A stretch of 64,000 bases of DNA. Source: Caldilineaceae bacterium. GTDB lineage: Bacteria > Chloroflexota > Anaerolineae > Caldilineales > Caldilineaceae. The translations under genes and the position numbers were made by a program. Location: positions 32,951-96,950 of the forward strand of contig JBEIHV010000001.1 in NCBI GenBank assembly GCA_040381095.1, read 5' to 3'. Under the pieces are notes generated by a model. That model ran no database searches and was not told the DNA's origin. It saw only the letters and a list, made by a program, of their open reading frames with translations. This document shows, one piece after another, positions 6,213 through 38,453 of this stretch (within the stretch, counting starts at the first letter, position 1; each line of letters starts with the position of its first letter).

Positions 6213-8217
6213 GGGTCACCTCTCCGATTGTGTGGTCGCCGCCGGTGTCCGGCAACTGGGCACCGGATTGGTTGTACAGCCCGACTGCCAGCTGGTAACG
6301 GCCGGCGGGCAGGTCGGCGGGCAGCTGCAGCTGGTATTCGTCCAGGATTTTCCAGCCGGCCTGCCAGCGCCGGGTCGGCAGCGAGCCGCCCCCTGGCACG
6401 CTGTCTGTGCCGGCGACTTGCCTCGTCGTGTCTGGAAGGGGTCCGCGCAGATGGACAAAGGTGGTCCATTCCTGCTGCGGGGGCGCGGCCACATCCCAGT
6501 AGAGCTGGACGTACAGGATGCGGCCGCTCTCCAGCACGGCCACCTGGGCATCGTAGCCGGCCAGCCCGATCCCGTCGCCCAGCTCTGCCGCTGCTGCGGT
6601 GGTCGGCGTGCGCTGCAGAGCGCTGCCTGCGGGGCGCAGGTAGCTGTTGGCATAGACCTGTCCCTGCCAGTCTGTGATCGTCTGTACGATCGTCGCATCG
6701 GGCAGCAGTTCCGGGAGCAGCAGCCGGGTACGAAAATCTTCGTTCTCGAGGACAACGTAGATCTCTGGCTGCAGCGTGCGGCCAGCGGTGGCTGGCAGAA
6801 CATGGCGGCCGTCGAACGATACGGGAGGGGGGTGGCTTCCGGGCTGTGTGCTCCAGGCAAAGGCCAGGGTGGGATGGTCTGCGGCGCGCGGCGTCAGATA
6901 GATCTGGCTTCCGGCAGGCTGGGCGGCGATCTGCCGGCCGACCTCCCAGAGTCCTACGTCGAACGCATAGAAAAGATCTGGCAAGGCTGCCCAGCGGACA
7001 AAATAGTCGCGCGCCGAGACCCCGGCCCCTGCGACCAGCAGCAGCACGCTCAGCCAGCCAGCCCAGGCACGGCGCGCGGGCTGGGCCCGGCGCCAGATCC
7101 AGTCGAGCCCCAGCCCGCCCAACAGCGCGACCGGGGCAGTTGCCCCCAACACGCGGTGATAGTGGGGGGCGTGTTCGCTCAGCACCCCGGGCAACAGCAG
7201 GCCGGGCAACAGGAGCAGGGGCAGTGCATGGCTGATGTGGCGAGCATGGCGCACAGCGAGCCCTGCCCCAAACCAGAAGGGAAGCGCCTGCCAGAAATTG
7301 AGCGCTGCCAGCCCAGGCAGATTCCGGCGCGGGTCTGGATCCCCCGCCTGCAGCCACGGCACAAACATCAACAGATAGGCCAGTGCACGCTCGCCCAGGG
7401 TCTGACCTGCACCGCTCTCCCCACCGCCGGCGATCTGTTCCGGGCGCAGCAGAAAGAGTGCCGGCTGCTCCAGCGCGAAGAGCAACAACGGCAGGGCGAG
7501 CAGCAGCGCGACTCCGGCAGCTCCTGCGGAGCCCGCCCAACGCAGGAGGCCGATCCTCCCCCGTGCCCGCCAGACGAGCAGGGCCCAGGCTGCCGCCAAC
7601 AGCAGCGGCAAAATCCAGGCCCCCTGATAGACATAGAGGCTGAGCGCGGTCAGGGCACCAAACCCAAGCAAAGTCTGCCAGCTGTGTGTCCGCCAGCCAC
7701 GCAACAACAGCCAGAGGGCTCCTGCGGCCACCAGCGGCACCAGGATCGGTTCGATCCCCATCCGGCTGAAGTGCAGATGCCAGCGGAGGGTGGCCAGCAG
7801 GCCGGCGGCCAACCAAGGGTATCCTCTGCTGATTCGGGTCGGGTGGAGCTGCCGCAGCTCATCGGCGGCAGCCCACACCGCAGCGACCCCCAGCACCCCG
7901 AACAGGGCGGCAGTCACACGCATCGCCACAGGCCCTGGTTCGCCGCCAAACCAGCCAAACAGACCAAACATCCAGGCATTGGCGTAGGCATTGGCTGGGG
8001 CAACCCCAAAATTTCCGGCCAAAAATACCGGGCGATAGCTTGGATCGGTCCAAATTCGCCAGGCTTCCAATCCCTCAAAAGCTTCATCGAAATGAAACCC
8101 GGGAGGAATGGTATCGATCTGCCAGAGGCGGAGCCCTGCTGCGACAGCCAGCACAGCCACAAACCCGAGCCAACTCCGAGATACGCGCATGGGGCGATTA
8201 TAGCACAAAAGGACCAT
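6205..8217 (-). CDS. family-39/PMT_2-type (ArnT-like) integral-membrane glycosyltransferase
   Basis: 670-aa ORF; alternative start at M10 (nt 8190). N-terminus LRLWQIDTIPPGFHFDEAFEG carries the first-loop D-E motif. About 12 hydrophobic segments, then a soluble C-terminal domain of roughly 170 aa. Confidence 0.8.
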   Translation of the reverse strand: MVLLCYNRPMRVSRSWLGFVAVLAVAAGLRLWQIDTIPPGFHFDEAFEGLEAWRIWTDPSYRPVFLAGNFGVAPANAYANAWMFGLFGWFGGEPGPVAMRVTAALFGVLGVAAVWAAADELRQLHPTRISRGYPWLAAGLLATLRWHLHFSRMGIEPILVPLVAAGALWLLLRGWRTHSWQTLLGFGALTALSLYVYQGAWILPLLLAAAWALLVWRARGRIGLLRWAGSAGAAGVALLLALPLLLFALEQPALFLLRPEQIAGGGESGAGQTLGERALAYLLMFVPWLQAGDPDPRRNLPGLAALNFWQALPFWFGAGLAVRHARHISHALPLLLLPGLLLPGVLSEHAPHYHRVLGATAPVALLGGLGLDWIWRRAQPARRAWAGWLSVLLLVAGAGVSARDYFVRWAALPDLFYAFDVGLWEVGRQIAAQPAGSQIYLTPRAADHPTLAFAWSTQPGSHPPPVSFDGRHVLPATAGRTLQPEIYVVLENEDFRTRLLLPELLPDATIVQTITDWQGQVYANSYLRPAGSALQRTPTTAAAAELGDGIGLAGYDAQVAVLESGRILYVQLYWDVAAPPQQEWTTFVHLRGPLPDTTRQVAGTDSVPGGGSLPTRRWQAGWKILDEYQLQLPADLPAGRYQLAVGLYNQSGAQLPDTGGDHTIGEVTLE

Positions 8218-8311
8218 CTGACTTGGGCAACTGCGTGTGCAGACGGCTTCAACCTGCCGCTCTCCAATAGAGAGCGGGGTTCCTGCAATTGGTTCAAATA
8301 CATGTGAAAAT

Positions 8312-8341
8312 TTGCGCAGAAAAAATGTCGCTTGCTATAAT
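8312..8341 (+). promoter_or_regulatory. candidate sigma-70-type promoter of the atp operon
   Basis: TTGCGC (8312-8317), an 18-nt spacer, then TATAAT (8336-8341) preceded by TGc (extended -10). It lies in the divergent intergenic region, about 70 nt upstream of the atpZ-like ORF. Confidence 0.4.
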
Positions 8342-8412
8342 CTGCAAAGTCTATGTGAAGGTACAGGAAGCCTGTGAGGGGTGCTGAGGTTGTGACGGAC
8401 GCCGAGTGACTT

Positions 8413-8712
8413 GTGTACGACCTGCGCACTGGTTTGGACTGGCGCTTGCTGACCCAATGGTTGCTGTGGACATTGTGGATTCCGGTCGGCACAGCATTTT
8501 TGTTGGACCGTTGGTTGGACACGTCGCCTTATCTGCTGTTAGGCACCGGAATTTTTTGTATTCCGCTGGCGACGATCGTGGTATTGCGCAGGGTGTTGTG
8601 GCAGCTTGATCGAGTCATCGAATGGGTTGCCCCGCCGGACGAAAATAAATCTAAAAATGGCTGTGCTGGTGGCTCAGACGATTTACCAGACACAGACAAA
8701 ACGACCCTTTAG
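8413..8712 (+). CDS. AtpZ/AtpI-like small membrane protein of the ATP synthase operon
   Basis: 99-aa ORF immediately upstream of atpB, with two hydrophobic helices. VGTAFLLDRWLDTSPYLLLGTGIF fits the AtpZ pattern G..lD.wlgT.P...l.G...G. Confidence 0.45.
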   Translation: MYDLRTGLDWRLLTQWLLWTLWIPVGTAFLLDRWLDTSPYLLLGTGIFCIPLATIVVLRRVLWQLDRVIEWVAPPDENKSKNGCAGGSDDLPDTDKTTL

Positions 8713-8766
8713 TTCGCCAGCCGGTTGCCGGCCCATCACCTTGTTACCGAAGGAGCATTCTGCACC

Positions 8767-9765
8767 ATGGGTAAAAAGCTTGTAGAGCTCCTCTGGAGCA
8801 CACAGCAGCGCAAGACCTGGACGATCATTCTTGGCGGGTTGCTTTTGGCCAGCCTTCTGATCCGCTTTATTGCGCCGGTTCCTCCGCCACACGTTGCCCT
8901 TTCGGGAGAGCCTCTTTTCTCTGCTGGCCCCAAATGGTTTACCAACTCTGTCTTGACTACCGTGATTGTTGACATCATTTTGTTGGTGTTGGCGCTCTCA
9001 GTTCGCTTTAGCATCAAAGAAATCCCCAGCGGTTTGCAGAATGTGATGGAGACAGTCATCGAGGCCCTTTATGGGCTGGCTGAAAGTGTTGCCGGAAAAA
9101 ACGCTCTCAGATTTTTCCCTTGGGTCGCCACGATTTTTCTCTTTGTCATCATCAGCAACTGGAGTGGGCTGATCCCGGGCGTCGGCAGCATTGGCTTCTA
9201 CCACCCTGTCAAGGAACAGGGGGATGGGCACACCTCGCTGCTGGACAACCAGCTGGCCATGGTTGGGGGCAACATTCTTCTATCTGCGCCTGAGGGTGCC
9301 CAGTCGGCACCAGCCTCTGCTGTGAGCGAAAAGGGAAAGTTTATTCCCCTTTTTCGGGCCCCGAGCACTGACCTCAACGTGACCTTTGCGATCGCCTTGG
9401 CGACGATGGTGATGGTTCAGATTTGGGGCGTGCGCCATCTGGGCAGCAGCTATTTCAACAAGTTTTTCAACTTCAGGGGCCCCAACGGCTTTATGAAAGG
9501 AATCAACGGCTTTGTCAGCATCCTCGAGCTGATCTCTGAGATTTCCCGTATCATCGCCTTTGGGTTTCGTCTGTTCGGCAACATCTTTGCTGGCGAAATT
9601 GTGTTGGCCACGATGGCATTTTTGATCGCCTTCTTGTTGCCGGTTCCATTTTATGTGTTGGAGGTGTTCGTCGGCTTTGTGCAAGCCCTGGTCTTCATGA
9701 TGCTGGCTCTGGTCTTTTTCCAGATGGCGACCATCAGCCACGGCAGCCACGACGGACATCATTGA
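8767..9765 (+). CDS. atpB: F0F1 ATP synthase subunit a
   Basis: [13 protein letters not shown] contains the conserved essential Arg. GAAGGAG at 8749-8755 favours the ATG at 8767 over the listed 8725. Position is upstream of subunit c. Confidence 0.9.
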
Positions 9766-9823
9766 TAGATTCAAACGACTTTTGAATTTGATCGGGTCAT
9801 CTCATTCACCAAAAGGAGATTAA

Positions 9824-10054
<231 letters not shown>

Positions 10055-31081: not shown

Positions 31082-31285
31082 ATGCCATTGTACGAATATG
31101 TCTGTGCACAGTGCGGAACATTTTTTGAACACTGGATGCGCAGCGCAGGCGTGCCAGACACAGTGTTCTGCCCGCATTGTCAGAGCCAGGAGGTCAGCAA
31201 AAAGTTTTCTACCTTTGGGATGAAAGGCGGTTCTGGGGCAAGCAGTGCGTCGGCGGGCGATAACTGTGCTCCAGGTGGTGGTTGA
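31082..31285 (+). CDS. FmdB-family zinc-ribbon protein
   Basis: 67 aa. MPLYEYVCAQCG...CPHCQS gives the CxxC...CxxC pattern typical of the FmdB/CxxC_CxxC_SSSS family. Confidence 0.8.
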   Translation: MPLYEYVCAQCGTFFEHWMRSAGVPDTVFCPHCQSQEVSKKFSTFGMKGGSGASSASAGDNCAPGGG

Positions 31286-31327
31286 GGGCTGCGCTGGACA
31301 AGCTGACCGTGTGTCGGCCTTCACAAA

Positions 31328-31361
31328 CAGACGGCTCCAGGAATGTTCCTGGAGCCGTCTG
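31328..31361 (+). terminator. perfect inverted repeat downstream of the zinc-ribbon gene (terminator-like hairpin without a U tract)
   Basis: CAGACGGCTCCAGGAA-TG-TTCCTGGAGCCGTCTG. It is followed by a 14-bp tandem repeat, CCGTCTGCATTGGG twice (31355-31382). Confidence 0.4.
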
Positions 31362-31878
31362 CATTGGGCCGTCTGCATTGGGCAGACTGCAATACTATCG
31401 TCAGACCCGCCGGCAGAACCCGAGGAATCCACGGCCAATGGGCCATCCAAAATTCTGACAAACTTGCCGCAATTTGCCACTCTTTTGCACACCGTTTGCC
31501 ATGCAACAGTCATCTTAAAAATGTTATCTTGTTTTTAAGAGTTCCTCCAGTTCGATACCTTGGCTTTGTACCAGCATCAAGAAACGGAAGGCTACAACAC
31601 GCTCATCTTGCTCTTCAGTCACGACAAGATTGCCCCCACTGACCTTTGCGGGCTGCGCTGGTCCTCTCGCAGGGGTCGCTCTTCATCTATTCGCCCGAGT
31701 CGTCGCTGTCTTGCATCCCCCGTGTACCAACCGATCCTCTGCCTGCTCGCCCGACACAACATCACTGGAATCGATTGCCGGCCTCTTCGTGCAGTCTGTG
31801 CTTTTCCAAGTTGCAGTCGACTGCCTCAGCCAGATCCAGTTTTTCATAACATCCACCAACAAGAGGAGGTATACTATT

Positions 31879-33126
31879 ATGCAAGTAAATCAAAAAAATC
31901 AGCATAGACTTCCTCGTATACCTGGCCAGTCTTCAGGAACCGCGACAAAGACGGTTGGACAGCTGAACGGTTTGAGCGCCGTCAAGGATCAGCCTGCCAT
32001 TGGCAGCGGGCTGTTTGCACTGGTTGTTGATAAAAATTTCACGATCAACCGCCTGCTTCAACATCGTCTGCAGATTTACGGCTTTATCGTGGCCAGCGTG
32101 TTCGACTTCGGGGATGCTCTGCAGATTCTTCAGCGTCAGCCATCACCCGATCTGATTTTTCTTGACATTTGGCTGCCGGGTCTCAATGGGCTGGACATAC
32201 TGGAACAACTGCGCAGGATGGAGATCGATGCAGCCATCATCATCAACACTGCGTCCACTTCCCTCGATCAGGCGGTGGATGCGTTGCGTCTCGGCGCCGA
32301 CGACTATCTGCGCAAGCCGTTCAGCACCGTCGAACTGACCGCTGTCCTCAATCGTACCCTTATCCGGTTACAGTTGCGCCGTCAGAATGCTCTGCTTCGA
32401 GCGCAGCTCGATGAAAAACACCGCCAACTGGAAGCTGAACTGCACCACGCCGCCCAGATTCAGCAGGGGTTGCTGCCGCAGCATGTGCCCGAAGTGCCCA
32501 ACTACGGGTTTGCCGCCTGCTGCCTGCCGGCGCGCGAAGTCGGCGGCGACTACTACGACTGGCATCTGTCAAGCAGCGGCGTCCTCAATTTTTCGCTGGT
32601 CGATGTGATGGGCAAAGGGATGCCCGCCGCGCTGCTGATGGCGACGACGCGTGCCTCGTTGCGCACCGTAGCCCCCAGCAAGACCCCGGCCGATGCGATC
32701 TGCGATGTCTGCGCCGCCATCGGCGACGACCTGAATCGGCTTGACTCCTTCGTCACCCTTTTTCTCGGTCAGTTGAATGAGCACAGGCTGACGTATGTCG
32801 ATGCCGGACATGGACATTGGTTTATGCGTCGCGCCGACGGTTCCTGCGAGACGTTCGCCAGGTTCAATCTGCCGCTCGGCATTCTACCCGATGTTGCCTA
32901 CGAAGAGTCGTCTACCGTGCTGAGCCAGGGTGACGCGTTGGTGATATACAGCGACGGTTTGGTGGATGCGCGCCCGGACCTTGAACTGACACCGCAGCAA
33001 CTGAATACGTTGATAGCAGACGCCAACAGCGCGGCGGAAATTCGTGCGCGGCTCATGGCGTTGGTCGTCGACCACAACGAGCTGACCGACGATCTGACCG
33101 TGCTGATTTTATTTCGTTATGTCTGA
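31879..33126 (+). CDS. response-regulator receiver fused to a PP2C/SpoIIE-type serine phosphatase (RsbU/RsbP-like)
   Basis: The ATG at 31879 lies 9 nt after AAGAGGAGG; the listed ORF starts at 31630. The REC domain has the acceptor Asp (LIFLDIWLPG), Thr (IINTAS) and Lys (LRKPF). The PP2C domain has REVGGDYYDW, DVMGKGMPAALLM and SDGLVDA. Confidence 0.85.
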   Translation: MQVNQKNQHRLPRIPGQSSGTATKTVGQLNGLSAVKDQPAIGSGLFALVVDKNFTINRLLQHRLQIYGFIVASVFDFGDALQILQRQPSPDLIFLDIWLPGLNGLDILEQLRRMEIDAAIIINTASTSLDQAVDALRLGADDYLRKPFSTVELTAVLNRTLIRLQLRRQNALLRAQLDEKHRQLEAELHHAAQIQQGLLPQHVPEVPNYGFAACCLPAREVGGDYYDWHLSSSGVLNFSLVDVMGKGMPAALLMATTRASLRTVAPSKTPADAICDVCAAIGDDLNRLDSFVTLFLGQLNEHRLTYVDAGHGHWFMRRADGSCETFARFNLPLGILPDVAYEESSTVLSQGDALVIYSDGLVDARPDLELTPQQLNTLIADANSAAEIRARLMALVVDHNELTDDLTVLILFRYV

Positions 33127-33182
33127 TGTTCCAAGTCTGCTGCGCTACATGACGTATACAGAGAGGAAAAAGTCCAGCCTGA

Positions 33183-35315
33183 ATGTGTAAAATTTTTCGT
33201 GATTTCCTGACAATCTTGCTCATCCTCTTCCCAATTCTTGTTCCACTGCAGCCTGCTCGTGCACAAGAAGACGCTGATGCGCTGACAACCTCGACGCATA
33301 CGCTGCGTTCGTTCGGTTACGGCGATCAGTCTGCGCGCGGCATTTACGCCACGCTTGACTACTATTTCGCGGCGCCGCCTGGCCGCATTCCTACGGAAGG
33401 CTCGCGGCTTGACTTGACATACAGCCATTCGCCGTTGCTCAACCCGGCGCTCTCCACAATGACGGTCGTCGTCGACGGACAAAGTATGACCAGCGTTGCC
33501 CTCGAGGGTGCCGCATCGTCTCCGCAGCGACTGAGCGTTTCTCTACCCGTGGCGCGATTTGCACAGCCCTCTCAACGTGACGGCGTCGGTTTTTTCGTGC
33601 AAATTCAGTTTTATCTACGCCTCACCGACGATGTGTGCGAAGTGCCCGACAATGCAGCGTTGTGGGCAACGGTGCACGCCGACTCCACACTGACGCTGGT
33701 CACGCAGCCAGTCGACACAATCCGTACCTGGGGAGCGCTTTTTGTGCGGCCGGACGGCGCCGGCAGAACCGAACCGGCGATCTTTGCCATCCCGCAATTT
33801 GCCACGGCCGACGTTGCGACGCTGCAAGCTGCCGGTGCAGTGGCCTATCAATTTGGGCAGTGGGCAGGTGCCCGCAATCTTGACCCACAGATCACGGTAG
33901 CGACAGCCCTGCCGCCGTTGACGCCTGAAGCGGCGCCCAGTTTCCTGATCGCCGAAGGTTCTGCAGCGGGCGTTGACAGGTTCGGCGCGCTGCGCTGGAA
34001 CGGCAATGCATTTGCTGTGGACTCCACACCGATCGGCGCCGACGCCGGTGTGCTGGCGCTGCGCATCGACGGCCAGAGCACGCAGATGCTGGTCAGCGGT
34101 GCTTCCACGGCGGCACTGCAGCAAGCCGCTGCGGCGTTGGTGACGCCTGAGCGCCGTGCACTGCTGGAAGGCGACTATGCCATTGTCAACGATGCCCCGG
34201 TGGCGTCGCTGCCTGCGCACGCCTGGGACAACAGTGCAGCCAGCTTTGCACAGCTTGGCTTGGGCAGCCGCACGTTCACTGGCCTCGGCGAGCAGAGCGC
34301 TACCTATTACATTGTGCGACCGGCAGGCTGGCTTTTGCGCGACGAGAGTTATCTGCTGCTTGATCTGCGCAGCACCCCTGGCCTTGCCGCGCCGGAATCA
34401 TGGGTCGGTGTGCGCATCAACGGGTACGATCTCGGCGCTCAGCCACTCGACACCGGACGTCGCGAACCGTATCGCTTTGCGCTGCCGCCTGATCGGTTCA
34501 CCACCGGCCTTGACGGCCAGCCGCTGCGCCGTCTCACCACCGAGGTGCGCGTTTTTCTGGCCATCGACAACGAAGGCTGTACACAGATTTCACCGCAAGG
34601 CGCACAGGTCACCCTTCTCGACACCTCGCGCCTCTACCTGTACCACGACGACTTCGCCGGGCTGGATTTGGGGCGGTTCCCTGCCCCTCTGCGCAGCGAG
34701 ACACCGACCTACGTCGTGTTGCCCGATGTTCCGGACGAGGCTGACTTGCACGCCGGTCTTGCCGTTATGGCTGCGTTTGGCCGCTGGACAGTGGAGCGCG
34801 CCTCCGTGCTGCCCAGCCTTGTGCGCGCCGACATGCTTGGCCCCGAACAGCTGCGCAGCGCCAGCCTTATCCTTATCGGCGGGCCGGATCGCAACAGCGT
34901 CAGCGCCGCAATGGCTGCGCAGTCGCCCGACATTTTTGCACCGGTGCAGCCTGCAAGTGTACAGACTGGCACTGCGGCGACTGTCGGCCTGCTCGGCGTT
35001 GCGCGCTCCCCGTTTGCGGGTCAGCACACCGTGATCGCCCTGCTCGACGACGTTGTGATGGCTGCCACTGCTCTCAGCAGCCACACAATTGAGACGCTGC
35101 GCGGCCAGCGTGCTCTGGTGCGCGCCACCACGCCGCAGATCCTGGCTGTGGCCGATCCGGCGGCAGTGCCGCCGGAGACGCTTGCCCCGCAGCTGGTCGT
35201 CCCGCTCATACAGAGCATTCCGCCCTGGCAGATCGTCGGTGCCGTGCTGCTCGGCGCGTTTGTCGCCGCCATTGTCGTCTTTGTTAGCCTGCGCTACCGA
35301 CCCAGAAAAATGTGA
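33183..35315 (+). CDS. bcsB: BcsB-like periplasmic/extracytoplasmic subunit of a cellulose-synthase-type complex
   Basis: Signal peptide (..LQPARA/QE). Two copies of the BcsB-type pattern (..G....G......Y.....P......L.L.YS.SP.L....S...V.V.G). One C-terminal TM anchor (WQIVGAVLLGAFVAAIVVFV). 4-nt overlap with the synthase gene. Confidence 0.7.
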   Translation: MCKIFRDFLTILLILFPILVPLQPARAQEDADALTTSTHTLRSFGYGDQSARGIYATLDYYFAAPPGRIPTEGSRLDLTYSHSPLLNPALSTMTVVVDGQSMTSVALEGAASSPQRLSVSLPVARFAQPSQRDGVGFFVQIQFYLRLTDDVCEVPDNAALWATVHADSTLTLVTQPVDTIRTWGALFVRPDGAGRTEPAIFAIPQFATADVATLQAAGAVAYQFGQWAGARNLDPQITVATALPPLTPEAAPSFLIAEGSAAGVDRFGALRWNGNAFAVDSTPIGADAGVLALRIDGQSTQMLVSGASTAALQQAAAALVTPERRALLEGDYAIVNDAPVASLPAHAWDNSAASFAQLGLGSRTFTGLGEQSATYYIVRPAGWLLRDESYLLLDLRSTPGLAAPESWVGVRINGYDLGAQPLDTGRREPYRFALPPDRFTTGLDGQPLRRLTTEVRVFLAIDNEGCTQISPQGAQVTLLDTSRLYLYHDDFAGLDLGRFPAPLRSETPTYVVLPDVPDEADLHAGLAVMAAFGRWTVERASVLPSLVRADMLGPEQLRSASLILIGGPDRNSVSAAMAAQSPDIFAPVQPASVQTGTAATVGLLGVARSPFAGQHTVIALLDDVVMAATALSSHTIETLRGQRALVRATTPQILAVADPAAVPPETLAPQLVVPLIQSIPPWQIVGAVLLGAFVAAIVVFVSLRYRPRKM

Positions 35316-37408
35316 TGGGCGTCACCTCACCGTCTCCGCAGAGGTCATGGAAAGAAGCGTCGGCCAACTGGCTGGCGCGTACCCTGCTGCCCGCCGATAT
35401 GGAGCGCCGCGCTCTGCTGCGCCTCAACATCCTGCGCATCCTCATTGTTGCCAATCTGCTCTTGGGAACATACTATATCGTCTGGCGTTGGGGTGCGTCG
35501 ATCAACTGGTCGTTCTGGTGGATCGCCGTACCGCTGGTCATCGCCGAAACCTACAGCTATCTCGATTCTTGGCTTTTTGGCCTGACGATCTGGCGATCCA
35601 CGCCGCGTACCACCTCCCCCCCTGCGCCGCCTGCAGTCACCGTCGATGTCTTGATCACCTGTTACAACGAGCCGATCGAGATCGTGCGCGAGACCGTACG
35701 CGCTGTCGTTGCCATCTCTTATCCGCACCGTACTTACATCATCGACGATGGCAACTCACCAGCGATGCGCGCGATGGCAGAAGCGGAGGGGGTCAGCTAC
35801 ATCGTGCGCACGGTCGAGTGGCAAGGCATGGATCGCCACGCCAAATCGGGCAATCTCAACAACGCCCTCTTTCAGACCACGGGCGAGTTTCTGCTCACCC
35901 TCGACGCCGATCAGATTCCGTCGCCCGCCATCCTCGATCGCACGTTGGGCTACTTCAGCGATCCGTGGGTCGCTTTTGTGCAGACACCCCAGTGGTTCTA
36001 CAATGTCCCGCCCGGCGACCCGTTTGGCAGCGACGCCCCACTCTTTTACGGGCCAATCCAGCAAGGCAAAGATGGCTGGAATGCTGCATTTTTTTGTGGT
36101 TCCAATGCCGTGCTGCGCCGTGATGCGTTGATGCAGATCGGCGTCAAGGCCTATTCCCGCGATTTGACAAAGCGCGTGCGCCGCTCCTTGCACACGGCCG
36201 ACCTGCTCCTCACCCAGCCCCCGCTGTTGGTGGACAGATCGGAACAGGCCGTGCGCGCTGCACTGCTCGAACTGCGCGCCGCCGTCAAACAGGTGCGCCA
36301 CAAACTGAGCGCCAAAGAATCGATCCAGTCAATTACGTGGGAGTTCCAGCGCCGTGCCCAGGAAGTAGCACAAGAGTTGGTCAGCCACGAGTTGATGCAC
36401 ATCCGCGCTGAGCTGGCCGACATTCCTGGCATCGACCTCGACCATGTGGAAAGCAGTTTCACCAAACTGCTCGAGGATGAGACGGCACTTGCGCAGCTTG
36501 CCAGCCGCACAACCTCGCCGCTGGCTGCGATCGAAACTGTGCGCCACCTGCTGATGGCCATCGACGTCGACCGCTCCGACGAGGCGATCCCGATCATGCC
36601 CTTTTCTACCATCTCTGTGACCGAAGATATGGCGACTGCCATGCGCCTGCACGCTGCCGGCTGGAAGTCGGTCTATCATCACGAGGTGCTGGCGCGCGGG
36701 CTGGCGCCCGAAGATTTGCGCACAGCGATGCAGCAGCGTCTGCGTTGGGCGCAAGGCACGATCCAGGTCATGCTGAGCGAGAGCCCGCTGACACAGCGCG
36801 GGCTTTCGTTCGGCCAGCGCCTGATGTACTTCGCGACCATGTGGAGCTACTTCTCTGGCTTCTTCAGTGTCATCTACATCGCCGCGCCGATTCTTTATCT
36901 TGGGTTGGGCTGGCTGCCCGTCAATGCCTTCTCGGCTGAATTGTTCCGGCATCTCATGCCCTATCTGCTGATCAATCAACTGTTTTTCCTGGTCGTCGGC
37001 TGGGGCAAGAAGACCTGGCGCGGCCAGCAATACAGCCTGGCGCTTTTCCCGTTGTGGATCCGCGCGGTGATCTCGGCAGTCAACAACGTCTATCGCGGCA
37101 AGAAGTTGGCCTTCGTTGTCACGCCCAAAACGCGGCAGGGCGGCCAACATTGGGATCTGGTGCGACCACAGATCGTCGCCATGCTGCTGCTGATCGGGAG
37201 CTCGATCTACGCGCTGGTGCGTCTGACGCTTGGACTGACCGACGAGGGCGTTTCGATTGTCACCAATATCTTCTGGGTAATGTACAATTTGATCCTGCTC
37301 AGTGCAGTGCTCGACGCCGCCACCTACCGCCCCCCAGAAGTGACCGAAAGCGGTGCCGCTGGCCAGGCCGTCGACACTGCTGCTCTGCTGCGTGGTCGCC
37401 CTGGATAG
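35312..37408 (+). CDS. bcsA: BcsA-type processive family-2 beta-glycosyltransferase (cellulose-synthase-like) with no PilZ domain
   Basis: Motifs in order: IIDDGN, LTLDADQ, FFCGSNAVLRR, SVTEDMATAMRLH, QQRLRWAQG, and KLAFVVTPK before the last TM helices. The protein ends about 30 aa after the last TM. An insertion of about 150 aa lies between FFCGS and TED. Confidence 0.85.
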   Translation: MMGVTSPSPQRSWKEASANWLARTLLPADMERRALLRLNILRILIVANLLLGTYYIVWRWGASINWSFWWIAVPLVIAETYSYLDSWLFGLTIWRSTPRTTSPPAPPAVTVDVLITCYNEPIEIVRETVRAVVAISYPHRTYIIDDGNSPAMRAMAEAEGVSYIVRTVEWQGMDRHAKSGNLNNALFQTTGEFLLTLDADQIPSPAILDRTLGYFSDPWVAFVQTPQWFYNVPPGDPFGSDAPLFYGPIQQGKDGWNAAFFCGSNAVLRRDALMQIGVKAYSRDLTKRVRRSLHTADLLLTQPPLLVDRSEQAVRAALLELRAAVKQVRHKLSAKESIQSITWEFQRRAQEVAQELVSHELMHIRAELADIPGIDLDHVESSFTKLLEDETALAQLASRTTSPLAAIETVRHLLMAIDVDRSDEAIPIMPFSTISVTEDMATAMRLHAAGWKSVYHHEVLARGLAPEDLRTAMQQRLRWAQGTIQVMLSESPLTQRGLSFGQRLMYFATMWSYFSGFFSVIYIAAPILYLGLGWLPVNAFSAELFRHLMPYLLINQLFFLVVGWGKKTWRGQQYSLALFPLWIRAVISAVNNVYRGKKLAFVVTPKTRQGGQHWDLVRPQIVAMLLLIGSSIYALVRLTLGLTDEGVSIVTNIFWVMYNLILLSAVLDAATYRPPEVTESGAAGQAVDTAALLRGRPG

Positions 37409-37449
37409 CACCGTCATCCAGCAGGGCGGTACCTGTTTGGTAGAAAGGA

Positions 37450-37797
37450 ATGGAGATGAAGTGGACCGTTGAACCCCGCAGCGCAGTCGGCGCTGTGATT
37501 AGGCTGGAAGGTCGGCTGGATCTGCTGTCTGCGGCAGCAGTCAAGACGATGCTCAGCGAGAGTGTGACTCAGGGACGACGCCATCTGGTCGTCGATCTTG
37601 CCGAGGTGACCAGCATAGACAGCTCCGGTCTTGGAGCGCTGATCGGCGGGCTGAAAGCGACTCGGCTGGCAGGCGGCGACCTGCGCGTGGCACGACCGAA
37701 TCAGCAGGTACAACTTGTCTTCAGTCTTACTTCGCTCGATCGCGTATTGAAGCCGTATGTCACGCTGGACGAAGCCGCTTCAGATTTTCTCGAGTAA
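37450..37797 (+). CDS. STAS-domain anti-sigma-factor antagonist (SpoIIAA/RsbV-like)
   Basis: 115 aa. L.G.LD....., then VVDLAEVTSIDSSGLGALIG with the phosphorylatable Ser after the Asp. Confidence 0.85.
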   Translation: MEMKWTVEPRSAVGAVIRLEGRLDLLSAAAVKTMLSESVTQGRRHLVVDLAEVTSIDSSGLGALIGGLKATRLAGGDLRVARPNQQVQLVFSLTSLDRVLKPYVTLDEAASDFLE

Positions 37798-38259
37798 ATG
37801 ACCGTGTGTATCGAATCTGCAGCAAGTGTTCACGAAACGGTCGAGCTGCCTGCGCTTGTCGAGCAGCTCGAGGCGGTTCGCCTGTGCATCACGCACTTTT
37901 GGGCGGCGACTGAACGGCGGCTGGCATACCCGCTGCCCGTACAGCTGCGACAAGAGTTTGAGACCGCTGTGATCGAAATTGCCAACAACATTGTGCGGCA
38001 CGCCTATCCGCCTTCCGCTGCAGCGGCGACGATGTGGATGGAACTGACATACAATAGATGCTGTATTGTCGCGCACTTCATCGACTCGGGCGTACCCTTT
38101 ACCAGATCGCTGCCGTCGACGCGCGCTGAGATGCCCGACCCCCTGGAGTTGCCGGAGCGGGGCTGGGGGCTTCAAATCGTACATGCACTCGTAGACGAGC
38201 TGTCCTACACACGCAACCCAGATGGCACCAACCACTGGCGGCTGCGAAAAGTAGCCTAA
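37798..38259 (+). CDS. RsbW/SpoIIAB-type anti-sigma serine kinase (HATPase_c_2)
   Basis: The start codon directly abuts the STAS stop. N-box EIANNIVRHA, DSG, and G-box RGWGLQIVHALVDEL. Confidence 0.75.
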   Translation: MTVCIESAASVHETVELPALVEQLEAVRLCITHFWAATERRLAYPLPVQLRQEFETAVIEIANNIVRHAYPPSAAAATMWMELTYNRCCIVAHFIDSGVPFTRSLPSTRAEMPDPLELPERGWGLQIVHALVDELSYTRNPDGTNHWRLRKVA

Positions 38260-38423: not shown

Positions 38424-38453
38424 TTGGCAGGAGCAGACAGCCCCTTCTATAAT
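38424..38453 (+). promoter_or_regulatory. candidate promoter upstream of radA
   Basis: TTGGCA (38424-38429), an 18-nt spacer, then TATAAT (38448-38453). Confidence 0.35.

Follow-up and report, generated by a model that had tools for sequence, protein, structure and literature searches.

What controls a BcsA-type polysaccharide synthase that has no PilZ domain? The question is raised by a five-gene cassette in a 64,000-nucleotide (nt) stretch from a Caldilineaceae bacterium of the Chloroflexota (assembly GCA_040381095.1, contig JBEIHV010000001.1, positions 32,951 to 96,950 of the forward strand; below, the window), in which genes for a PP2C/SpoIIE phosphatase with a receiver (REC) domain, a STAS protein and an RsbW/SpoIIAB-type kinase stand on either side of genes for a BcsB-like subunit and a BcsA-like family 2 glycosyltransferase (GT2). 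In canonical BcsA, cyclic di-GMP (c-di-GMP) acting through PilZ frees the gating loop. The control of BcsA-type enzymes is understood almost entirely in these terms, which leaves a gap in our picture of regulation in the relatives that lack PilZ, found in Gram-positive and filamentous phyla. The most likely answer for the present family is that a dedicated partner-switching module controls the synthase after translation.

A synthase without PilZ and the regulatory genes beside it

The open reading frames (ORFs) of the window reproduce, with the same coordinates and spacings, the five co-directional genes described in an earlier reading of this DNA (the original prediction): all lie on the + strand, with 56, -4, 41 and 0 nt between successive genes. 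The Pfam families anticipated for their products were also all returned (PF00072 with PF07228, PF03170, a GT2 set, PF01740 and PF13581). The features of the cassette are given below, with lengths and domain limits in amino acids (aa).

31865-31869, + strand: Shine-Dalgarno sequence GGAGG, 9 nt 5' of the ATG of gene 1, read from the sequence
31879-33126, + strand: REC-PP2C/SpoIIE serine phosphatase, 415 aa (PF00072, aa 48-157; PF07228, aa 234-411)
32020-32349, + strand: receiver domain of the phosphatase, from an alignment with eight homologues and CheY
32578-33111, + strand: PP2C/SpoIIE catalytic domain of the phosphatase (PF07228, E 1.2e-32)
33183-35315, + strand: BcsB-like periplasmic subunit, 710 aa (PF03170, E 2.4e-45, aa 36-586)
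35312-37408, + strand: processive BcsA-like GT2 synthase, 698 aa (PF03552, PF13641, PF00535, PF13632)
36143-36613, + strand: helical insertion of the synthase, aa ~278-434, from the alignment to BcsA and the AlphaFold model
37112-37129, + strand: gating-loop motif FVVTPK of the synthase, aa 601-606, from the translation
37450-37797, + strand: single-domain STAS protein, 115 aa (PF01740, E 1.4e-18)
37621-37623, + strand: codon of Ser58 (DSSGLG) of the STAS protein, predicted phosphorylation site, read from the translation
37798-38259, + strand: RsbW/SpoIIAB-type serine kinase (HATPase_c_2), 153 aa (PF13581, E 2.5e-15)

The synthase contains every catalytic motif that had been named for it, DDG (residues 145-147), LDAD (197-200), FFCGS (260-264), TED (437-439) and QQRLRW (474-479), and these are invariant in 50 homologues. 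The same holds for F601, V603, T604 and K606 of FVVTPK, which corresponds to the FxVTxK loop whose role in BcsA is established; the predicted local distance difference test score (pLDDT) is low there, as expected for a mobile loop. BcsA is the best match by both sequence (phmmer, 4e-62 against the Escherichia coli enzyme 7LBY and 1e-54 against Rhodobacter BcsA) and structure (Foldseek, 2e-28, TMq 0.64, using an AlphaFold model with pLDDT 82 and pTM 0.82), with plant CesAs as second-best structural matches. The best NCBIfam model is CelA, at 331 bits, below its equivalog cut-off of 699.

Four lines of evidence uphold the claim that this enzyme lacks PilZ. PF07238 has no match in the window synthase even at E <= 0.1, and no precomputed match in any of the 120 homologues nearest to it (57-81% identity); the alignment with E. 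coli BcsA stops before the PilZ domain of the latter; and the model is all-helical after residue 469, and so has no beta-barrel. The last transmembrane helix (646-671) is followed in the model by only ~27 residues, the protein ending at 698, in agreement with the short C-terminus of about 30 residues estimated earlier.

The synthase also has a part of its own. In the HMMER alignment its residues 278 to 435 correspond to residues 448 to 453 of E. coli BcsA, which places an insertion of ~155 residues between FFCGS and TED. The insertion is all-helical in the model, with predicted helices spanning residues 270-415, and it is present in all 85 aligned family members at a length of 152-167 aa. Across these it is conserved less than the catalytic parts (mean majority fraction 0.56 vs 0.81-0.84), with SPL 402-404 and EA 424-425 invariant. 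Searched alone, it matched 36 representative clusters among 1.8 billion proteins, the full-length matches placing it at about residues 240-520 of proteins of 635-734 aa, and no Pfam family was found for it (E <= 10 gave noise only). Mimicry of a sigma-factor domain by the insertion was considered and is not supported, the best Foldseek hits being generic helical bundles (E 0.44) and no Pfam family matching. Neither the synthase as a whole nor its insertion or C-terminal tail has a known c-di-GMP-binding domain detectable with Pfam. Judged by sequence, the enzyme belongs to a distinct BcsA-like family without PilZ and with its own insertion, the latter a candidate docking or regulatory platform; it has the catalytic features that define BcsA but not the PilZ domain, and is not to be classed with the canonical c-di-GMP-gated cellulose synthases.

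The regulatory proteins keep their diagnostic residues. In the phosphatase, the PP2C metal-site motifs GGDYYD, DVMGKG, SDG and DDLT are kept, as they are in its homologues. Its receiver (PF00072, E 2e-23) retains the phospho-acceptor Asp96 together with Thr124 and Lys146 when aligned with eight homologues and CheY, whereas Lys52 (nt 32032-32034) replaces the second aspartate of the acidic pocket, at the position of CheY Asp13 (VVDKN vs VV[DE]DD in the eight homologues). All those members of the 90% cluster whose sequence includes the N-terminus share VVDKN, so the lysine is not a sequencing error. CheY D13K is not phosphorylatable yet constitutively active; with no histidine kinase gene nearby, a lysine at this position invites the speculation that the input of the window receiver may be independent of phosphorylation.

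With the NCBIfam model for anti-sigma factor antagonists (TIGR00377) the STAS protein exceeds the cut-off, and its nearest solved relatives are TM1081, TM1442 and SpoIIAA. Its predicted phosphorylation site, Ser58 in D57-S58-S59-G-L-G, lies in a motif (IDSSGLGALIGGLKA) with a conservation of at least 95% over 79 sequences. The kinase matches the NCBIfam RsbW and RsbA models weakly, and its N-box (EIANNIVRHA) and G-box (GWGLQIV) are both conserved across 72 sequences; reading the translations placed the serine and the two boxes where the original prediction had them. At the level of sequence, the three proteins answer to the definition of a partner-switching module, and all three look catalytically or functionally intact. 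The BcsB-like protein has a hydrophobic, signal-like N-terminal segment and a C-terminal transmembrane anchor, as read from its translation, and its gene overlaps that of the synthase by 4 nt; no BcsC, BcsZ or BcsQ gene is present with the window synthase.

Distribution of the cassette in two phyla

A genome scan with one genome per species yielded 568 stretches encoding a relative of the synthase, and the best 80 of these, together with four loci fetched separately, made up a survey set of 84 loci (numbered with the prefix L). Because the scan patterns were family-specific motifs, this is a survey of the present synthase family and not of all PilZ-less BcsA homologues. Core genes were called with phmmer, using the five window proteins against six-frame ORFs of the 84 loci. 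A custom GC-frame gene caller mis-called some genes in loci of moderate GC (missing, for example, the BcsB gene of L001), and was therefore used only for flank surveys of high-GC actinobacterial loci. The 80 best loci came from Chloroflexota (Roseiflexus, Chloroflexus and a Thermomicrobiales metagenome-assembled genome, MAG) and, unexpectedly, in many cases from Actinomycetota, among them Nocardioides, Arthrobacter, Microbacterium, Kocuria, Prescottella equi, Gordonia, Mycobacterium aurum, Mycolicibacterium, Cellulomonas, Geodermatophilus, Pseudonocardia and others.

The regulatory genes accompany the synthase almost throughout. A PP2C gene was found in 78 of the 84 loci, a STAS gene also in 78 (three of the six without one are contigs that end too early) and a kinase gene in at least 71. 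The genes are packed closely: median spacings are -4 nt from PP2C to GT2 (49 of 59 pairs overlapping), -4 nt from GT2 to STAS (53 of 70) and -11 nt from STAS to kinase (63 of 71). The order REC-SpoIIE/[BcsB]/GT2/STAS/HATPase_c_2 recurs in three Pfam-annotated loci, from Roseiflexus, a Caldilineaceae MAG and a metagenome relative with 81% identity, and two of these three have a histidine kinase gene directly upstream of the phosphatase gene. Linkage to the synthase persists where gene order has been rearranged. In five loci the regulatory genes are displaced, with STAS and kinase genes on the opposite strand, either upstream of the synthase gene (L029, L047, L070, L078) or downstream of it as a phosphatase-STAS-kinase trio (L031); in three others (L033, L034, L068) the PP2C gene lies 3' of the kinase gene.

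Pairwise divergences of the STAS protein, kinase and PP2C track those of the synthase (mirror-tree analysis of 71 loci, r 0.71-0.77), indicating that the four genes have been inherited as a unit. Outside the set there is no conserved neighbour across the 84 loci: the commonest is a GH26-like hydrolase gene (26 loci), and all others occur in at most 10. No sigma factor is encoded in the Pfam-annotated loci L001, L003 and L004, and Sigma70 is not among the families with at least two of the 128 ORFs flanking 16 actinobacterial loci. The recurrence of the gene set in 84 loci from two phyla argues that the cassette is not a product of chance. Conservation of the neighbourhood, which the original prediction had put forward as its own test, was thus strongly positive across Chloroflexota and Actinomycetota, and comparative genomics, through linkage, overlaps and the lack of a recurring sigma factor, strongly supports its central idea that the partner-switching module serves the synthase.

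Two parts that had been taken as belonging to the core, BcsB and the receiver, proved instead to be lineage-specific. Besides the window, a BcsB orthologue occurs only in Chloroflexia-type loci (L001, L002, L004-L006, L009-L013); none of the actinobacterial loci has it, nor does the Caldilineaceae locus L003, so that the gene has been gained or lost within the group to which the window belongs. L003 itself has the REC-PP2C, GT2, STAS and kinase genes without BcsB, with ~58 nt between the PP2C and GT2 genes. The input domain of the phosphatase is likewise variable. It is a receiver in the window, Roseiflexus, L003, L004 and some Arthrobacter and Paenarthrobacter; most Actinomycetota have GAF-PP2C, and GAF was found in all 11 scanned actinobacterial proteins without a receiver, as well as in the Chloroflexota MAG L008; L011 has GAF-PAS-PAS, and L017 and L026 have CHASE-PAS. 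In three Chloroflexus genomes (L010:3034-5862, L012:3002-5842, L013:3010-5859) the phosphatase is a single ORF of 942-950 aa with Hpt, three REC stretches, GGDEF and SpoIIE, which carries an intact RxxD...GGEEF motif and lies 5' of BcsB-GT2-STAS-kinase. A variable sensor joined to a constant core of phosphatase, STAS protein, kinase and synthase is as expected of a module dedicated to the synthase.

The GH26-like hydrolase genes lie just 3' of the kinase gene or just 5' of the PP2C gene (for example L053:5676-6665, L079:5630-6706, L007:10734-11828 and L061:10730-12103), with partial Pfam matches at E 1e-11 to 1e-14. GH3 occurs in L028 and in L004, where it stands in place of the GH26-like gene; the window has no GH26-like gene. 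The accompanying hydrolases are GH26-like or GH3 and not the GH8 enzyme BcsZ, and the GH26-like neighbours hint that the polymer may not be plain cellulose.

In the window, the cassette is preceded by genes for LysR, rhodanese, MBL-rhodanese, TauE and Zn-ribbon proteins and followed by those for RadA, FabF and FabH; with these genes identified, the flanks hold no sigma factor, GGDEF/EAL protein or histidine kinase, as had been claimed. Across the whole 64 kb there is no histidine kinase gene (phmmer with two histidine-kinase queries), no second REC, STAS, PP2C or RsbW-like gene, and no c-di-GMP riboswitch or other RNA element matching Rfam at the gathering threshold, a sensitive Rfam scan of 31250-31950 giving a single chance-level match only. 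The gap of ~590 nt between the Zn-ribbon gene and the operon holds, within 31328-31381, a perfect 16-nt inverted repeat (CAGACGGCTCCAGGAA / TTCCTGGAGCCGTCTG, with a 2-nt loop), which overlaps two tandem copies of the 14-mer GCCGTCTGCATTGG and could be a terminator or an operator; the 14-mer does not occur elsewhere in the window, and nothing similar was seen upstream of the cassette in the closest relative, L004. Just 5' of radA, at 38424-38453, is a near-consensus match to a sigma-70-type promoter (TTGGCA, an 18-nt spacer and TATAAT; 11 of 12 positions), consistent with radA being a transcription unit separate from the cassette. Farther away, positions 8001-10000 have a G+C content of 0.53, compared with 0.58-0.68 elsewhere in the window, and may be a foreign or non-coding segment.

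How the synthase may be controlled

We consider it somewhat probable that the cassette specifies a partner-switching module complete in itself, which has the co-encoded synthase as its dedicated output in place of a sigma factor and exerts direct post-translational control. Under this proposal the RsbW-type kinase would act as the 'off' enzyme by phosphorylating Ser58 of the STAS protein, and the PP2C phosphatase as the 'on' enzyme, stripping that phosphate once its N-terminal input domain is stimulated (REC in the window, GAF in most Actinomycetota, and CHASE-PAS, GAF-PAS or Hpt-REC-GGDEF-REC elsewhere). The STAS protein's phosphorylation state would decide whether it or the kinase occupies the synthase, the likeliest docking site being the helical insertion in the cytosolic glycosyltransferase domain. 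Docking there would set whether the FxVTxK loop admits UDP-sugar to the active site, and the BcsB-like subunit would, in the window, belong to the synthase complex. Anabaena All4160 and Vibrio fischeri SypA suggest by analogy that the STAS protein probably activates in its unphosphorylated form. Direct gating by the module is what we infer from these observations, as are the sign of regulation, the binding partner and the polymer made. The full version, in which unphosphorylated STAS protein or released kinase docks on the insertion and frees the FxVTxK loop, so that serine phosphorylation plays the PilZ/c-di-GMP role as the standard arrangement in Actinomycetota and Chloroflexota, is put forward tentatively, as quite possible and somewhat short of probable.

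Several points weigh against direct control of the synthase by the module. Physical contact of the STAS protein or the kinase with the synthase is something we infer. A partial Mantel test across 71 loci singled out no docking partner, all components correlating equally with the core and with the insertion, and a Foldseek search of the PDB with a model of the insertion by itself (pLDDT 70) gave nothing significant. Three loci, from Kocuria oceani (L036), Arthrobacter agilis (L054) and Arthrobacter sp. ISL-30 (L066), keep the insertion but lack STAS and kinase genes over a distance of 8 kb; these may be natural 'uncoupled' variants. L036 still has a PP2C gene. The kinase is divergent, a phmmer search of the PDB finding no SpoIIAB or RsbW and only designed-repeat-protein artefacts. 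RsbW-type kinases classically bind sigma factors, and one may be encoded elsewhere. Lastly, the Chloroflexus phosphatases with an intact GGDEF domain suggest that the pathway may involve c-di-GMP in some members, and the original idea that the switch stands in for c-di-GMP is accordingly weakened and uncertain.

The Chloroflexus fusions, directly 5' of BcsB-GT2-STAS-kinase, also provide an argument for a different account, in which the switch acts via c-di-GMP: its output would be a diguanylate cyclase, encoded elsewhere or fused to the phosphatase, and the synthase would sense the nucleotide via a non-PilZ site in the insertion or the short C-terminus. There are published systems in which a STAS protein acts on a cyclase that feeds a BcsA-like synthase. 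The BgrSTUWV partner switch of Sinorhizobium meliloti is reported to act through the diguanylate cyclase BgrR on BgsA, a BcsA-like synthase of mixed-linkage beta-glucan that binds c-di-GMP through a C-terminal region and is not described as having a PilZ domain; HsbA acting on HsbD in Pseudomonas aeruginosa would be a second parallel. We nevertheless regard this account as unlikely: no GGDEF gene lies in the window cassette or its flanks, GGDEF is not among the families with at least two of the 128 flanking ORFs of the actinobacterial loci, the Pfam searches of synthase, insertion and C-terminal tail detected no known c-di-GMP-binding domain, and translational coupling ties the regulatory genes to the synthase and not to a cyclase.

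Slightly less likely again is a conventional anti-sigma/anti-anti-sigma system, in which the kinase would sequester a distant sigma factor and the synthase would be a member of the regulon or a hitch-hiker. The TIGR00377 score of the STAS protein and the weak RsbW/RsbA matches of the kinase are what such a system would show, the source annotations read RsbU, anti-anti-sigma factor and anti-sigma regulatory factor, and orphan RsbW/RsbV paralogues with SigF/SigB-type sigma factors as their targets are numerous in Actinomycetota. However, the window flanks are free of sigma factor genes, none recurs among the 128 flanking ORFs, and sequence searching connects the kinase with no solved SpoIIAB or RsbW. 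The linkage to the synthase holds in ~80 species of two phyla, with stop/start overlaps on both sides of the synthase gene, and a passenger role for the synthase is hard to reconcile with this pattern. Comparably improbable is control by the module of the localisation, oligomerisation or stability of the complex, or of an accessory (BcsB or the GH26-like hydrolase), with the insertion as an oligomerisation element: by its position in the fold the insertion corresponds to the class-specific region found in plant CesAs, which are the second-best structural matches, and 26 of the 84 loci have a GH26-like hydrolase gene beside the cassette, but the BcsB and GH26-like genes are absent from most or many loci while the regulatory trio is nearly universal, so that the common target must be the synthase itself, be it in its activity or in its assembly.

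Relation to known systems and significance

The pair SypE/SypA of V. fischeri had been named as the nearest precedent; two other systems, HenR/All4160/Alr3423 of Anabaena sp. PCC 7120 and BgrSTUWV of S. meliloti, prove closer. In Anabaena, partner-switching-like control of the heterocyst polysaccharide has been described (bioRxiv 10.64898/2026.04.08.717354; Mol Microbiol 2026, PMC13555669), with control of a glycosyltransferase without a sigma factor (PMC13555669) and with the non-phosphorylated STAS domain as the active form (bioRxiv 10.64898/2026.04.08.717354; PMC13555669). The two arrangements share a receiver-SpoIIE phosphatase (here presumably acting on the STAS protein), an RsbW-like kinase with a STAS phospho-serine, and a glycosyltransferase as output. 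They differ in that the Anabaena glycosyltransferase carries its STAS domain as an N-terminal fusion, whereas here STAS is a separate protein, of 115 aa in the window, in the window and all 78 STAS-bearing loci, and PF01740 occurs in none of the 120 synthase homologues. The Anabaena enzyme is an XssP homologue according to its paper, a type not compared with BcsA here, and the window enzyme is, unlike it, a membrane-embedded processive synthase. Finally, the Anabaena phosphatase and kinase genes are scattered, whereas here all genes of the set belong to a single operon, tightly coupled and conserved across two other phyla.

With the Bgr system the cassette shares a PP2C/STAS/kinase module that governs the output of a BcsA-like synthase, one not described, as noted, as having a canonical PilZ domain, and the Chloroflexus relatives, in which GGDEF is tied to the phosphatase, are a further likeness both to Bgr and to the HptB-HsbR-HsbA pathway of Pseudomonas aeruginosa, whose STAS protein targets the cyclase HsbD. 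In Bgr the STAS protein targets the cyclase and c-di-GMP activates the synthase via its C-terminal region; the window cassette, by contrast, has no cyclase, its synthase has a tail of ~27 residues, and its regulatory genes flank the gene of the synthase itself, unlike the cyclase targets of Bgr and Hsb. Compared with RsbU-RsbV-RsbW and SpoIIE-SpoIIAA-SpoIIAB of Bacillus, the same three families are present, with the serine position of DSSGLG, the N- and G-boxes and the adjoining STAS and kinase genes, but the cassette, both in the window and in the surveyed relatives, has no sigma factor gene within it or close by, and the conserved partner is a glycosyltransferase.

The V. fischeri system resembles the cassette in having a STAS phospho-switch inside a polysaccharide locus, with SypA acting downstream of transcription. 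In SypE, however, kinase, receiver and phosphatase are combined in one polypeptide, whereas the window kinase and REC-PP2C are encoded by separate genes at opposite ends of the operon; and the syp locus, of 18 genes, specifies a multi-enzyme pathway and not a single processive synthase. With canonical BcsA-BcsB (Rhodobacter 4HG6/4P00, E. coli 7LBY/9B8V) the synthase shares D, DxD, TED, QxxRW, FFCGS and FxVTxK, and in the window it also has a BcsB-like partner with a C-terminal anchor that is translationally coupled to it. It departs from BcsA in the lack of PilZ, in the helical insertion of ~155 aa that replaces a 5-residue connection, in having only two predicted N-terminal transmembrane helices, and in that BcsB is missing from most members of the family.

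A full-text literature search, whose scope excluded most subscription journals, found no description of the cassette. Partner-switching control of exopolysaccharide enzymes is known; what is notable in the cassette is its occurrence in two phyla and dozens of genera, the tight operon and the insertion of the synthase. The cassette is a concrete and widely distributed candidate answer to how PilZ-less synthases are controlled, and its carriers include culturable genera with genetic tools, such as Prescottella/Rhodococcus, Mycolicibacterium/Mycobacterium aurum, Gordonia, Arthrobacter and Microbacterium. The Chloroflexus fusion of GGDEF and phosphatase suggests how the phosphorylation and c-di-GMP routes may connect. 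If the proposal is true, partner switching would extend from sigma factors and cyclases to the direct control of a membrane synthase, a new synthase subfamily marked by its insertion would be defined, and an uncharacterised exopolysaccharide of soil and sludge bacteria identified.

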